Shown here piece by piece: positions 6,149-59,705 of a DNA stretch of 64,000 nt (its first letter is position 1; the number at the start of each line of letters is the position of its first letter). The stretch covers positions 800,001-864,000 of the forward strand of contig CP060223.1 of assembly GCA_023898465.1 (NCBI GenBank). Direction: 5' to 3'. Position numbers and translations under genes: made by a program. The notes beneath the pieces are model-generated. The model searched no databases, was not told the DNA's origin, and saw only the letters and a program-made list of their open reading frames with translations. The DNA is from Candidatus Nomurabacteria bacterium (GTDB lineage Bacteria > Patescibacteriota > Patescibacteriia > HK-STAS-PATE-3).

Positions 6149-6191
6149 ATACTAAGATATAAAAACTCGCCTGTCAACGTCTACTTTGACA
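6149..6191 (-). promoter_or_regulatory. suf operon promoter (TTGACA-17-TAGTAT on minus strand) overlapping a 20-nt palindrome TGTCAACGTCTACTTTGACA (candidate Rrf2 operator)
   Basis: Read on minus strand: TTGACA (6172-6177) spacer 17 TAGTAT (6149-6154), about 11 nt before the Rrf2 ATG. Perfect 6-bp inverted repeat TGTCAA-N8-TTGACA at 6172-6191. Confidence 0.45.
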
Positions 6192-6266
6192 AGCAGTGCC
6201 TGCAAAATCTATGCTACCCCCATACTCGTTCTTTCACACCCGTTCCCATGCAGGAAAGGAATACTC

Positions 6267-6911
6267 ATGGACGCTCTGATGACCAGCCTTGTGCAGGCAC
6301 CAATTCGCAAGAGTCGGCCGACCTGCGCTCGACGTCGATCTCACCGCTTCCAGCAACTACGTCATGGAACCCGACTTCGCCCTCTGGCAATCGCGCTCAA
6401 CCAACTCAACATCAGACCTTTCGTCAAGGCTGATGTGGAGAGATACAAGCGTGCACGTCGCGCTGAGTGCGAACCAACGCTTCGTCGAGATGCGCGCTTC
6501 AGGCGCTTCTTCCACATCAGCGCTAAGGTCGCCGCGATATTCGTGATAGTGTCTGCCATCTACTTGGCGGTACCTGGTCCGGCTCAATTCGCGGCGACTT
6601 GCTCGCTACTTGTTTCGTCGGTCTACCTGACTGCAAACCTCATCCTCGGCTGTCGCCTGCAGTTGCGAACTTACGTCCGCTGGCAGACCTGGAAAATCGA
6701 AACAGAGTGGTGCGCTTACCCAGGCGTACTTCCCGATCCTGTACAGCTACAGATCGCCAGGATCAAGGAGGTAGCACCGGGCGCTCGCTTCGAGGTCGAA
6801 GACCTCCGTTACAATACCGGACGGGTCTATGACCCACTCCTGTACGCGTGTCTGGATGAGGAACGCTTCTGCGTAGCAACTTGGCTAGGCAAGGAATGCC
6901 GAATCGCCTAA
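6267..6911 (+). CDS. hypothetical membrane protein (Arg-rich N-terminus, 2 predicted TM helices); first gene of GC-rich island 1
   Basis: 214 aa from the ATG at 6267, preceded by SD AGGAAAGGA. About 59% GC against a 48% backbone. Hairpin terminator follows. Confidence 0.45.
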   Translation: MDALMTSLVQAPIRKSRPTCARRRSHRFQQLRHGTRLRPLAIALNQLNIRPFVKADVERYKRARRAECEPTLRRDARFRRFFHISAKVAAIFVIVSAIYLAVPGPAQFAATCSLLVSSVYLTANLILGCRLQLRTYVRWQTWKIETEWCAYPGVLPDPVQLQIARIKEVAPGARFEVEDLRYNTGRVYDPLLYACLDEERFCVATWLGKECRIA

Positions 6912-6926
6912 GGCCACATTCGAGAC

Positions 6927-6952
6927 CAGCTTCTCTCTTGAAGCTGGTCTTT
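6927..6952 (+). terminator. rho-independent terminator (gaccagcttc-tctctt-gaagctggtc + T-rich)
   Basis: Perfect 10-bp inverted repeat followed by TTTCCTT. Confidence 0.6.
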
Positions 6953-6962
6953 CCTTATATGC

Positions 6963-7275
6963 TTGACAGTTTTTCTAGACCGTGCTAACTTATCCCGTTG
7001 TTCGTGACCGCATATGTAGTCCCGGACAACGTCAACCACTGGAAATCGGCGCATCATCGCGCCACGTCACAACGAATGGGAGGTATTCCCTCGATGCTGA
7101 CAAAACTCAAGCGTTGCCCGCGTAGGTATGCGAGCCTGGGTCGCCGGTCCCAGTAGCCCTCTCTCGCACGAGAGGAATCCAACTCGTCCTGCGCCGGGGC
7201 CTTCCACCGGCAATTACACCGTCGAAACGGACGAACCCCGGAGCCCGAAGACATCTGTCTGAGGGCTCCTTTTTC
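6963..7275 (+). ncRNA. candidate small non-coding RNA unit: promoter TTGACA-17-TAACTT, about 280 nt ORF-free transcript, terminator ggagccc…gggctcc-TTTTT
   Basis: TTGACA 6963-6968, TAACTT 6986-6991. No plus-strand ORF above 30 codons. Terminator stem 7240-7246/7263-7269 plus T5. Confidence 0.3.
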
Positions 7276-7277
7276 CA

Positions 7278-7306
7278 TTGACACAAAGCGTATCGTCTGC
7301 TATATT
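7278..7306 (+). promoter_or_regulatory. sigma70-like promoter TTGACA-17-TATATT for the small-paralogue operon
   Basis: TTGACA 7278-7283, TATATT 7301-7306. SD GGAGG at 7336-7340 precedes the ATG at 7345. Confidence 0.5.
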
Positions 7307-7344
7307 CCCCGGTCTCACGCACCTGCACAATCAACGGAGGATGA

Positions 7345-7614
7345 ATGCGGAACGAAGACGCTGATGCAATGCACTTCCACTGGGGGATCACGAACTGCGT
7401 TGTCATCGACGTAGAAGAAAGGCCTAGAGCAAGTGCGGTACGCACTTTTGCTCAGGACAACCAAGCTACTTGTTCAGAGGGAAATGAAGTCCTGGTGCGA
7501 TGCACCTGCACTGAAATTCGACCTCAGCTACTTAGTGTGAGGAGGCTCCAGTCCTTTCTCACCGAACATCGTTCTGGTCATCCAATAAACTCGCCCAAAG
7601 AGGAGGGGGAATGA
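7345..7614 (+). CDS. small Cys/His-motif protein, tandem paralogue 1 of 3 (no recognisable family)
   Basis: 89 aa. Shares NCVVI, (V/I)L(V/I)xCxC and FLxxHxxGH with the next two ORFs. Stop overlaps the next start (ATGA). Confidence 0.5.
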   Translation: MRNEDADAMHFHWGITNCVVIDVEERPRASAVRTFAQDNQATCSEGNEVLVRCTCTEIRPQLLSVRRLQSFLTEHRSGHPINSPKEEGE

Positions 7615-7889
7615 AAGCAGTCAACGCTGGTGAACACGGCAACGAGCACGTCCGGGTCTGCGTTGTCATCGAAGGAGATGAGAACCGAGATATTCTGGAA
7701 ATCTACGCTTTCGCTCGCGAGGTTCAGGCCATCGAGCCTGACGAGCCGCAAGACGAGGCTAGCGATGGAGAACGCGTCTTGATTTGTTGCGAATGTCCGG
7801 GCGGAGACAGACCTCGCTTCGCTGACCATGACCAACTGATCGCCTTTCTCCGCGATCACAACTCAGGCCACCACGCTTCGGTGGAATAG
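7611..7889 (+). CDS. small Cys/His-motif protein, tandem paralogue 2 of 3
   Basis: 92 aa. SD GGAGGGGG. Motifs VCVVIEG, YAFARE, VLICCEC, FLRDHNSGH. Confidence 0.5.
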   Translation: MKAVNAGEHGNEHVRVCVVIEGDENRDILEIYAFAREVQAIEPDEPQDEASDGERVLICCECPGGDRPRFADHDQLIAFLRDHNSGHHASVE

Positions 7890-7904
7890 CCGGAAGGAGA
7901 CTAC

Positions 7905-8177
7905 ATGCATACCGTAGCCGCTACGGCACCATCGAAGCAAGTCAAGAACTGCGTCGTAATCCAGCTAGGAGAGCATCCCTCTCTAGAGACGCTCCTTGCC
8001 TTCGCGGCAGAGCATGCGGCCGTCAGAGTTGACGAGCAACCCGACGAACTCAACGACGGTGATCAGGTCCTGGTCACCTGCAATTGTCGGGACGGCTCAG
8101 GGCAGCAAATGCTCCTCACCGTGCCGGAGATTGAGCAGTTTCTCGAAAGTCACGCCTTGGGGCATCCCTCGGGGTAA
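7905..8177 (+). CDS. small Cys/His-motif protein, tandem paralogue 3 of 3
   Basis: 90 aa. SD AAGGAGA. Motifs NCVVIQLGE, LAFAAE, VLVTCNC, FLESHALGH. Confidence 0.5.
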   Translation: MHTVAATAPSKQVKNCVVIQLGEHPSLETLLAFAAEHAAVRVDEQPDELNDGDQVLVTCNCRDGSGQQMLLTVPEIEQFLESHALGHPSG

Positions 8178-8195
8178 ACTATGCACCTTCACCTA

Positions 8196-8233
8196 GAACC
8201 AGCTGACTCCGGTCTCCTGGTTCTTTCTTTTTC
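8196..8233 (+). terminator. rho-independent terminator (gaaccag…ctggttc + TTTCTTTTTC)
   Basis: 7-bp stem, then T-run. Closes island 1. Confidence 0.55.
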
Positions 8234-9110: not shown

Positions 9111-9225
9111 AGGTATATTGTAGCACGTACTTAGGGTATAGTCTTGACATTTCTATAAAAATCGCTAAGGTCAGACTGCTTTTGGAGCATTGACATCAAC
9201 CGCTAGAACAGAGGAGGAGGAGTAG

Positions 9226-9468
9226 ATGACGCTCGCAGCTACTGAACTTAGGCCTGGGATGACGGTGCGGAATCTGCGGAGCGGTCTCACCGCTACGGTC
9301 ACCGAACCGCTGAGGGTCACGGGCGATCCGCTGCACGTACACGTCAGGAGGACGATGGAGGGAGGCGAGAGCAACGGTAAGACCAAGTTGACCACCTGGA
9401 GTCTCGACAACGTCGAGATCGTGCCGGTGGCTCAGGAGCCTGTCGACAACGATCGGCAGGTCGGCTAG
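9226..9468 (+). CDS. hypothetical small protein (GC-rich islet)
   Basis: 80 aa. Strong SD GGAGGAGGAG. About 62% GC. Followed by a nested hairpin terminator. Confidence 0.4.
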   Translation: MTLAATELRPGMTVRNLRSGLTATVTEPLRVTGDPLHVHVRRTMEGGESNGKTKLTTWSLDNVEIVPVAQEPVDNDRQVG

Positions 9469-17812: not shown

Positions 17813-18190
17813 CTAAGGTGTAGCGGTTCGACGTCGTTGTAGCCACAGGATGGGCTGCATCCACAGCCAGCCGAAGAGGAACCAGCCAACAGCCAACCAG
17901 AAGATGAAGACAGCTGGAGGCCAGAAGTATGGAGCGAATGCGTACGTTAGCATCACGTCATTTGCTGCAGATGGGAATGCTTCCTCACCTACAGCATAGC
18001 GCTCAGCCGCCTCGTCTCCGTAGCGGTCGCGAACCTTGTCCATGACCTCAGCGGAAAACTGCGACGCAGTGAGGCTCGCTGCCTCCTGCACACACTCATG
18101 ATGCACGCGGTACGCATACATCGCGGACGGGATCGCCACCAGAATCGCGGCAATCACGTACCAAACACGCAAAGCAGTCCACTTTCGCAT
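17813..18190 (-). CDS. hypothetical membrane protein (GC-rich island), immediately downstream of 16S rRNA on the same strand
   Basis: About 125 aa from the internal ATG preceded by SD GGGAGG. The track start is TTG. Trp-rich C-terminal TM (WLAVGWFLFGWLWM). Confidence 0.4.
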   Translation of the reverse strand: MRKWTALRVWYVIAAILVAIPSAMYAYRVHHECVQEAASLTASQFSAEVMDKVRDRYGDEAAERYAVGEEAFPSAANDVMLTYAFAPYFWPPAVFIFWLAVGWFLFGWLWMQPILWLQRRRTATP

Positions 18191-18557
18191 CTCGTCCTCC
18201 CATATTGCCAAGGTACAAAACTAACGTAAGAAGGTATCACTTTACGCGACTTTTGTCAATGCAAACACAGCCCGGGAGACATACTCCAAGGCTGTGTTAC
18301 CTGCTAACAGCTCAAACGTGATCAGTACAACGAATCGACTAACTACTTCGTCATAAATGTCCTCTTCTTTGAAGAAGGACGACGAAGGGTAGTTTACTAC
18401 CATCTGATGCTGAGCAACTGCCTATCACTCGGACAATCAATTGATTTGCCCGAATGGGCAGTCGGACAGACATCACGACCTACTAGGTCTCACATACTGC
18501 ACGATAGTGCAAATATATGTAGAGCCATCGTACCTTACGGCACGAAGATTCTCCCTA

Positions 18558-20042
<1,485 letters not shown>

Positions 20043-20341
20043 AAGATTTTTTATTACCGCATCCGAAGATGAGGCACCAGAAAGATCTTCAAAACTGGTA
20101 TGGAATCATTATTGGGATTCATGTGTACCGATCACGCTCGAACTGTCAACGATCTGAACTATTTTTTCTTATCTTTATGGGGCGTCCGAGCGTGAGCGGC
20201 GCATCCCCATCAGAGTGAAGAAAAAACAGTGGAATCCGATTCGAAAATCAGACGCTACTGTTTTTCCTTACACCGTCCTGCTAGTTGTTAGGGCAGAGGG
20301 TATGTGAAGGCTTGTTTCCAGCTAATCGTAAGAGCATGCAC

Positions 20342-20370
20342 ATTGTAATGGTACTCTGAAAACTTGTCAA
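20342..20370 (-). promoter_or_regulatory. candidate 16S rRNA promoter TTGACA-17-TACAAT (minus strand), about 300 nt upstream of the mature 5' end
   Basis: Forward tgtcaa 20365-20370 and attgta 20342-20347. Spacer 17. Confidence 0.4.
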
Positions 20371-54227: not shown

Positions 54228-54640
54228 ATATATGCATTATACCATTGACAAAAAGCTCTACCTATGCTATCCTCTCGCGTAGTTTGCAGAGCAGTTGTTC
54301 TTTCGCAAACTCAAAAGAGTCGAACGCTTGGGCCCGTCAGGGTTAAGCGTGAGACTCAGAGGGACATCCTTTCGAAAGCCGAAGTGGACTGGTGAATACC
54401 AGAACACGTAGGCAGGAGAAAGAGATGGCCCGAGAAGATGAGGCGTTTGACTCGTTTACCGAATTGAGGACGCTTTCCGCCCACGGGCGGATAAGTGAAC
54501 GAGAAGCCAAGTAGCGTAACCGGCATCAGTAGTGTTTTTGTAGAATTACCGGACAACGTACTTGCGACCCAAAAGGAATATGGGTCACCAAACGCCTCCC
54601 AACAGATGGGAGTTCTTTTCATCTAAGGGAGGAAAAAGAG

Positions 54641-55321
54641 ATGGCGAATATCGTCGTCTTTGATCCGATCCGTGAACATTTCAGTGACTACATGATTGGG
54701 CTAGCCAGTCATCAGGTTATCGTGAGAAATACGGTCGAGGACGTCAATGGGACGCTCCGATCCTTCTCACCCGACCTGATCCTGGTAGCTGAATCAGAGC
54801 AGTCAGCTGCCGTGATCGCGGCCGTGCAACGGAGTGATCGACGCATACAAGCGCCAACACTCCTTATCCCTGCATCACTCGAAGGACCTGATGACCAGCG
54901 ATGGCAACAGAGCCGTCAGCTCGGCGTCGCGGGATGGATCCCTCGACCTCAGCAACGAGGCTTCAAGTCACTCCTGGCTGAAGACTGGCGACGTAATATC
55001 GTCAGTCTCATGCTCTGGCTATGCAATCAGTTGCACCGAGAGCAACCACTGAGTGTGTGGTTCCGAGAACATCAAAGCGTCGTGGCTATGGTGGGCCAAG
55101 AAACCTATCATCGCCTCATCACCGGCTCATCCATCCAGTATGCACCCGAAGAATATCGTCGACTCCAGAGGACACTGGCAATCTGGGGAGTACGCTATCC
55201 GCTGGATCGCTATCTCCAGGCTGTCGCTCTTGCAGGACGCAAGGCAGAGGCACAGAGACTCTCAGATCGCGTGCTTACAAACATGGCGAGGCGCATGCTT
55301 TCGTCTGAAGCACAAGGCTGA
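54641..55321 (+). CDS. pseudo-receiver (REC-like) domain protein, paralogue A (GC-rich island)
   Basis: SD AAGGGAGG. IVVFDP…PDLILVAESEQ…TLLIPAS…GWIPRP follows CheY topology, but the phospho-acceptor position is Ala and the conserved Lys is Arg. Confidence 0.4.
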   Translation: MANIVVFDPIREHFSDYMIGLASHQVIVRNTVEDVNGTLRSFSPDLILVAESEQSAAVIAAVQRSDRRIQAPTLLIPASLEGPDDQRWQQSRQLGVAGWIPRPQQRGFKSLLAEDWRRNIVSLMLWLCNQLHREQPLSVWFREHQSVVAMVGQETYHRLITGSSIQYAPEEYRRLQRTLAIWGVRYPLDRYLQAVALAGRKAEAQRLSDRVLTNMARRMLSSEAQG

Positions 55322-56072: not shown

Positions 56073-56183
56073 CGCAACCCGAGGCGTCTACTTTCCCCAA
56101 GTAGGCGCCTTTCTTCTTGACTTTTTTATCTAAGTGGATAAACATGCCCACGGACACTGTTCGACAAACCATAGGAGGCGCAC

Positions 56184-59631: not shown

Positions 59632-59705
59632 ACGAACATAATAACGCAACTGAGTTGCATGTGTCAAGTCCTCTCTATTCTCGGGAAAATGAAAGGCGCT
59701 CTAGA

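Follow-up and report, generated by a model that had tools for sequence, protein, structure and literature searches.

A candidate stand-alone structured RNA with its own promoter and terminator in a lineage-specific island of Candidatus Nomurabacteria

Bacterial islands encode stand-alone small RNAs (sRNAs) that run from a sigma-70 promoter to a Rho-independent terminator, as exemplified by Salmonella InvR and the Isr RNAs. A comparable order of elements is found in type III toxin-antitoxin systems of the ToxI kind, in which a promoter, a non-coding RNA, a terminator and protein genes follow one another on the same strand and the RNA consists of tandem repeats that are processed by the toxin. 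Regulation by RNA has hardly been explored in the Candidate Phyla Radiation (CPR), and our literature search yielded no paper on sRNAs from this lineage. Here we describe a gap between genes of Candidatus Nomurabacteria, a CPR bacterium, within a 64-kb stretch of DNA that was analysed throughout (the window). We read the segment, with a confidence slightly above even, as a structured non-coding RNA of about 275 nt that stands alone, has a constitutive terminator, is transcribed from a promoter termed P1 and belongs to a lineage-specific island.

The island and the boundaries of its middle unit

The candidate lies inside a GC-rich island at about 6250-8200 (55-58% GC versus a window average of 48%), which adjoins a divergently transcribed Rrf2-suf operon. 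The island comprises three back-to-back units on the plus strand, of which the candidate RNA is the middle one. With its 434 nt, the gap exceeds every other gene-free stretch that the public pipelines leave in the 20-kb locus. The units and their signals are listed below.

6186-6950, plus strand: unit 1, with a promoter at 6186, a 214-aa ORF ending at 6911 and a terminator at 6923-6950
6923-6950, plus strand: terminator hairpin of the 214-aa gene, an 11-12 bp stem with a T-rich tail (-21.1 kcal/mol, z = -7.2)
6963-7274, plus strand: unit 2, the candidate RNA, from P1 to the terminator at 7240-7274
6963-6991, plus strand: promoter P1, with -35 element TTGACA at 6963-6968, a 17-nt spacer and extended -10 element TGcTAACTT at 6983-6991
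7240-7274, plus strand: downstream intrinsic terminator (-21.8 kcal/mol, z = -5.2)
7278-7306, plus strand: promoter P2 of the three-paralogue operon, TTGACA/17/TATATT with TG (11/12 match)
7278-8224, plus strand: unit 3, with a promoter at 7278, three paralogous ORFs of 89, 92 and 90 aa and a terminator at 8195-8224

An earlier note on this DNA had placed a TTGACA/TAACTT pair with a 17-nt spacer directly after the terminator of the upstream gene, a 7-bp GC hairpin with T5 downstream of the pair, and the whole immediately 5' of the paralogue operon's own promoter. All of these signals were located: the upstream hairpin ends 12 nt before the -35 element of P1, the downstream hairpin stands at 7240-7274, and P2 begins 3 nt past its T-run. 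The upstream terminator is the left boundary of the unit and P2, outside the RNA, is the right one, and the units on either side (6186 to 6950 and 7278 to 8224) are themselves cleanly bounded.

The -35 element of P1 is a perfect TTGACA. Its -10 element, TAACTT at 6986-6991, is weak, matching TATAAT at only 3/6 positions, yet these are the key ones (T1, A2 and T6) and the element is extended by a TG at 6983-6984; a stricter promoter-search rule left P1 unlisted. Exact matches to TTGACA-N16-18-TAnnnT numbered 14 in the window compared with 1.65 +/- 1.3 in shuffles, an approximately 8-fold enrichment, and the remaining 13 sites were positioned upstream of ORFs or of 16S rRNA, indicating that this motif class marks real promoters here. 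P1 therefore gives the unit a promoter of its own, with a predicted transcription start site (TSS) near G6997. At the other end, GGAGCCC (7240-7246) pairs with GGGCTCC (7263-7269) in a 7-bp GC stem that encloses a tandem G-A/A-G internal loop and a 4-bp stem; T5 follows directly at 7270-7274. The hairpin (7240-7269) was the most stable of those abutting any of the 706 T-runs (at least four T) in the window, and the terminator as a whole ranked strongest among 22 hairpin-plus-T-run sites, providing the unit with a Rho-independent terminator of its own that would end in U5.

Conservation could be assessed in strain L005 (SRR17818317), the sole diverged strain found, which is 94% identical at the nucleotide level, has the same Rrf2/214-aa arrangement, encodes an 86% variant of the 214-aa protein and is represented by a contig that ends at 7024. 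The 214-aa gene differed from its L005 counterpart with a dN/dS of 0.36 at a synonymous difference of 0.18, indicating that the island is maintained by selection. Differences were found at 2 of 46 positions in the P1 region (6951-6996; P = 0.007 against the synonymous 0.18), at 4 of 74 positions when the first 28 nt of the RNA are added to P1 (P = 0.0015) and at 9 of 39 sites in the stop-to-terminator spacer beside P1. On this alignment, P1 is conserved, with divergence well below the synonymous rate, and its -10 element reads TACCTT in L005. The stem of the upstream terminator is kept in L005 via a U-A to U-G change.

Five further copies, from other samples, were 100% identical. A sequence in ENA ERZ28655665 (scaffold_107850, 980-1066) matched the window exactly as far as 7214, beyond which it ran into unrelated ORF-like sequence; we discarded it as a variant, because it is probably a chimeric scaffold end inside the candidate RNA. 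A 19-mer match in a viral contig was likewise discarded as a 20-nt chance match inside a CDS. Relatives were found neither by protein or DNA pattern in JGI metagenomes, GTDB genomes and IMG/VR nor by blastn against phages and plasmids, and the window holds no further copy of the RNA. As judged from these searches, the candidate RNA appears to be an orphan of one species-level lineage. L005 stops at 7024, and no homologue that could serve for covariation covers the RNA body.

The proteins encoded on either side are orphans of a similar kind. The upstream 214-aa ORF (241 aa with a TTG start) encodes a two-TM-like membrane protein with an Arg-rich N-terminus, and defence, phage and Pfam profile searches assigned no island protein to a Pfam, PHROG or PADLOC family; the downstream operon genes matched no toxin or defence model in profile searches. 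The paralogues (7345-8177, plus strand) are three tandem small acidic proteins of 89, 92 and 90 aa that have an invariant Cys (CVVI), a CxC and an H..G.H motif in common with protein P0004 (L004, 284-568), and these Cys/His motifs could make a metal site. Among 1.84 billion representative proteins, only 4 are true members of this family. P0004, its single relative outside the island, is encoded on a 604-nt contig whose upstream sequence is unrelated to the candidate RNA. Homologue searches found no variants of the 92-aa and 89-aa proteins, and an AlphaFold model of the 92-aa paralogue was unusable (pLDDT 48.8). The 92-aa ORF (7611-7889) is identical to the NCBI hypothetical protein H6760_04035 of a Candidatus Nomurabacteria bacterium, and Logan gene calls alone include the 89-aa first paralogue (7345-7614, plus strand). 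At NCBI, the locus tags pass directly from H6760_04030, which denotes the upstream gene in a 158-aa version, to H6760_04035 for the 92-aa gene, suggesting that the 89-aa ORF is unannotated in the deposited genome.

Two other regions of the window merit description. Another short stretch of high GC content (about 58-59%) lies at 9144-9468 (plus strand), with its own TTGACA promoter at 9144 and an orphan 80-aa ORF preceded by a strong Shine-Dalgarno (SD) sequence; in cassette style it is similar to the 6186-8224 island. A complete 16S rRNA gene lies at 18559-20042 (minus strand) between strongly structured flanks (18041-18313 and 20091-20363); no 23S rRNA occurs within the 64-kb window, suggesting that the rRNA genes are unlinked.

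Predicted fold and coding potential

The plus strand of 6998-7270 had a predicted folding energy of -110.3 kcal/mol (z = -4.26), and the z-score of the minus strand was -1.89. Across 312 same-length windows the background z-score had a mean of -0.62 and a standard deviation of 1.45, with 9/312 at -4 or below, one of which falls inside the neighbouring coding gene. The whole-RNA z-score, in the top 3-7% of windows, is a notable feature of the predicted structure, neither exceptional nor decisive. The model comprises the following elements in addition to the terminator.

6997-7030, plus strand: stem-loop SL1 at the predicted 5' end of the transcript (-15.5 kcal/mol, z = -4.2, pair probability ~1.0)
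7048-7063, plus strand: stem-loop SL2, GGCGC-AUCAUC-GCGCC (-10.1 kcal/mol, pair probability 1.00)
7092-7116, plus strand: hairpin predicted to sequester AUG 7094 of a 20-codon frame (pair probability 0.77)
7117-7198, plus strand: central branched domain from a single-sequence prediction (helix pair probabilities 0.97-1.00)
7220-7233, plus strand: small hairpin CGUC-GAAACG-GACG (pair probability 0.87)

SL1 was the most stable predicted 5' end among 14 promoter-proximal transcripts of the window. The central domain is built from stems 7121-7126/7188-7193 and 7130-7134/7183-7187, which would carry hairpins at 7136-7153 and 7158-7175. The second of these is the interior hairpin ctctc-gcacg-gagag that the earlier note had pointed out, recovered here as CCUCUC/GAGAGG (-9.8 kcal/mol, pair probability 0.98). 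The region 6963-7275 contains no tandem or direct repeats.

The alternative that fared best is that the locus yields no functional product, an outcome that we consider unlikely while giving it real weight. Under this explanation, the signals remain from a gene cassette that has decayed, or else P1 yields just a transient transcript with no function, and the structure is an effect of GC-rich sequence. It is consistent with the RNA having no relative in any collection searched, with a z-score that stays within the range given above and not beyond it, and with a 275-nt size near that of the neighbouring 89-92-codon genes. However, the conservation of P1 and the purifying selection on the adjacent gene show that the island is maintained. 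Profile searches of the six-frame translation found no trace of a decayed fourth paralogue, and neither the paralogue family nor Pfam left a remnant in any frame. The 5' hairpin and the window's strongest terminator would also be unexpected in a decaying region.

The reading frames of the gap were compared with those of the island genes.

6998-7156, plus strand: 52-codon ORF with a TTG start
6982-7125, plus strand: 47-codon ORF with a GTG start
7128-7262, plus strand: 44-codon ORF with an ATG start
from 7094, plus strand: 20-codon ORF from an internal ATG of a 26-codon frame, with GGGAGG (7078-7083) 10 nt upstream

The earlier note had seen no plausible ORF in the gap and had given a 26-codon frame without an SD sequence as the longest candidate. 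The latter statement was incorrect, as three longer ORFs exist and GGGAGG precedes the internal ATG of that frame, but the conclusion appears to stand: by codon log-odds, 5' hairpin and pairing, none of the gap ORFs looks coding. Codon log-odds were negative in 8/8 gap ORFs (-0.02 to -0.46, including -0.16, -0.46 and -0.15 for those of 52, 20 and 44 codons, respectively), and none of them showed the GC1 > GC2 signature seen in island genes. In a leave-one-out comparison, 3/4 island genes scored +0.11 to +0.23, and the 214-aa gene scored -0.01. Gene callers annotated no ORF in the gap, and the gap ORFs had no Pfam, PHROG or PADLOC match.

These results make it improbable that the transcript is a small-protein mRNA, in which P1 would drive the 50-52-codon ORF (TTG 6998 or GTG 7004 to TAG 7156), the 20-codon ORF (ATG 7094) or the 44-codon ORF (ATG 7128), with the rest serving as a 3' UTR. 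Leaderless translation appears to be in use here and looks common, with an ATG 6-11 nt past the -10 element at four window promoters that imply leaderless or near-leaderless mRNAs (41663(+), 59667(-), 24154(-) and 6177(-)). TTG 6998 has a leaderless spacing, sitting 6 nt past the -10 element as does the start of the leaderless gene at 59667. However, leaderless initiation has a strong preference for AUG, and both 5' structure and short leaders inhibit it (PMC8459731). In place of an AUG or GUG at an unstructured 5' end (PMC8459731), the candidate offers UUG 6998, or GUG 7004 behind a 7-nt leader, both within a predicted hairpin of -15.5 kcal/mol, compared with -2.5 to -3.3 kcal/mol in the predicted leaderless mRNAs of the window. 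As for the 20-codon ORF, GGGAGG stands ahead of ATG 7094 at a spacing of 10 nt versus 4-6 nt in island genes; in the predicted fold, this SD-like element is mostly paired and AUG 7094 has an unpaired probability of <=0.15. The two L005 substitutions within the RNA (28 nt compared) fall in the bulge (7009) and the loop (7014) of SL1, both unpaired (chance ~0.07), yet they are also mild in the 52-codon frame (ACC to ACT, synonymous; TAT to TTT, a conservative Tyr to Phe change) and so do not discriminate between the models.

Relation to the downstream operon

The earlier note had suggested either a regulatory sRNA or a cis-acting leader. The stand-alone, non-coding part of this proposal is the better supported, by P1, the terminator, SL1 and the lack of coding statistics; the leader part is disfavoured by P2 and by the absence of an antiterminator. 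A leader or attenuator of the three-paralogue operon would use P1 as a second promoter, with conditional read-through of the terminator at 7240-7274 adding a structured 5' UTR. The candidate is oriented like the operon and directly precedes it, and segment 7152-7161 is complementary at 9/10 positions to the terminator 3' arm. However, this segment would compete for the late-made 3' arm, an unusual geometry for an antiterminator, and P2, a near-consensus match with TG, stands between the terminator and the operon and interrupts the continuity of any 5' UTR. Folding of the nascent transcript revealed no antiterminator: the upstream RNA offered the terminator 5' arm no stable pairing, and excluding the terminator cost 18.6 kcal/mol without a compensating fold. 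With no antiterminator and with P2 in between, the terminator seems to act constitutively and the operon to be self-sufficient, so that an attenuator or riboswitch is disfavoured. We therefore doubt that the segment acts as a leader, to about the same degree as we doubt the small-protein mRNA.

The Rfam scan that the earlier note had proposed placed the candidate in no family. Rfam 15 gave nothing relevant in the whole window at the gathering threshold, and with permissive filters and E values up to 10 the region itself still matched no riboswitch, leader or other family; nor did ARAGORN detect a tRNA or tmRNA in the region. A weev_FSE match at 56083-56109 (minus strand; 40.1 versus a gathering threshold of 40) is a perfect 11-bp hairpin beside tRNA-Glu and was rejected as almost certainly a false positive. 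A duplex-energy scan revealed no standout complementarity to neighbouring start regions, the island starts having uninformative ranks of 0.16-0.61.

A separate locus at 54245-54640 (plus strand) has a TTGACA/17/TATCCT promoter, an ORF-free leader of about 370 nt and then a 226-aa ORF. It overlaps the lowest fold z-score in the window (-5.3, at 54531-54803) and a sub-threshold Rfam c-di-GMP-II match (54430-54534; 23.7 bits versus a gathering threshold of 53.5, E = 0.012), and may be a divergent riboswitch or leader.

Favoured model and comparison with known systems

A non-coding unit is the best-supported reading because its signals are unusual for the genome, P1 is conserved, the 5' hairpin is unlike the mRNA starts of the window and coding statistics are lacking. 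In our model, P1, as a sigma-70-type promoter with an extended -10 element, would start transcription near 6997. The RNA, about 275 nt in length, would at once fold its stable 5' stem-loop, which may protect it and block translation from the 5' end; the second hairpin and the branched central domain would then form. The RNA would be released at the strong constitutive terminator, which would also insulate P2. The product would most likely be a structured non-coding RNA, not an mRNA or leader. Judging from its position, our best guess is that the RNA would have a regulatory or protein-binding role in its island, which encodes the 214-aa membrane protein and the three Cys/His paralogues.

A bolder proposal is that the RNA is the non-coding part of an undescribed three-part cassette, nearly confined to one CPR lineage, whose parts would be the membrane protein with its Arg-rich N-terminus, the RNA and the three Cys/His paralogues; the RNA might serve as an antitoxin, as a regulator or as a scaffold for the proteins of the cassette. 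We regard this as a long shot; if true, it would be the first example of island-borne RNA-based regulation in the CPR. The candidate is a well-formed yet ordinary prediction of modest immediate value. If transcribed, it would join a very small number of concrete candidates for an sRNA gene in CPR bacteria and would give a handle on an orphan island with a four-member protein family.

Several known systems resemble the locus in part. Like the large or medium structured RNA classes of Rfam (6S, large SRP, OLE, HEARO, ROOL, GOLLD, raiA and others), the candidate, as predicted from an intergenic region, would form several helices within a few hundred nucleotides; unlike them, it has no Rfam match and is confined to one species-level lineage, and its 5' and 3' ends are predicted to be unpaired, unlike those of 6S RNA. 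The element order on one strand is that of type III toxin-antitoxin loci, but the candidate has no tandem repeats, and the downstream genes have their own promoter and no toxin or defence match. Riboswitch or attenuator leaders likewise place an intrinsic terminator at the end of a structured RNA of about 250 nt, directly ahead of a same-strand operon; the candidate differs from them in having no Rfam aptamer or antiterminator and in the independent strong promoter before the operon. The closest likeness is to the InvR/Isr-type sRNAs, from which the candidate differs in its host, a CPR bacterium, and in its length of about 275 nt, at the long end of their size range. With them it shares a promoter of its own, a U-tract intrinsic terminator, the apparent absence of a credible ORF, a body predicted to be structured with a few single-stranded segments, and a location beside island genes in DNA that looks horizontally acquired. 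The RNA is a credible sRNA gene candidate, an orphan instance of this familiar type of element and not a new kind.
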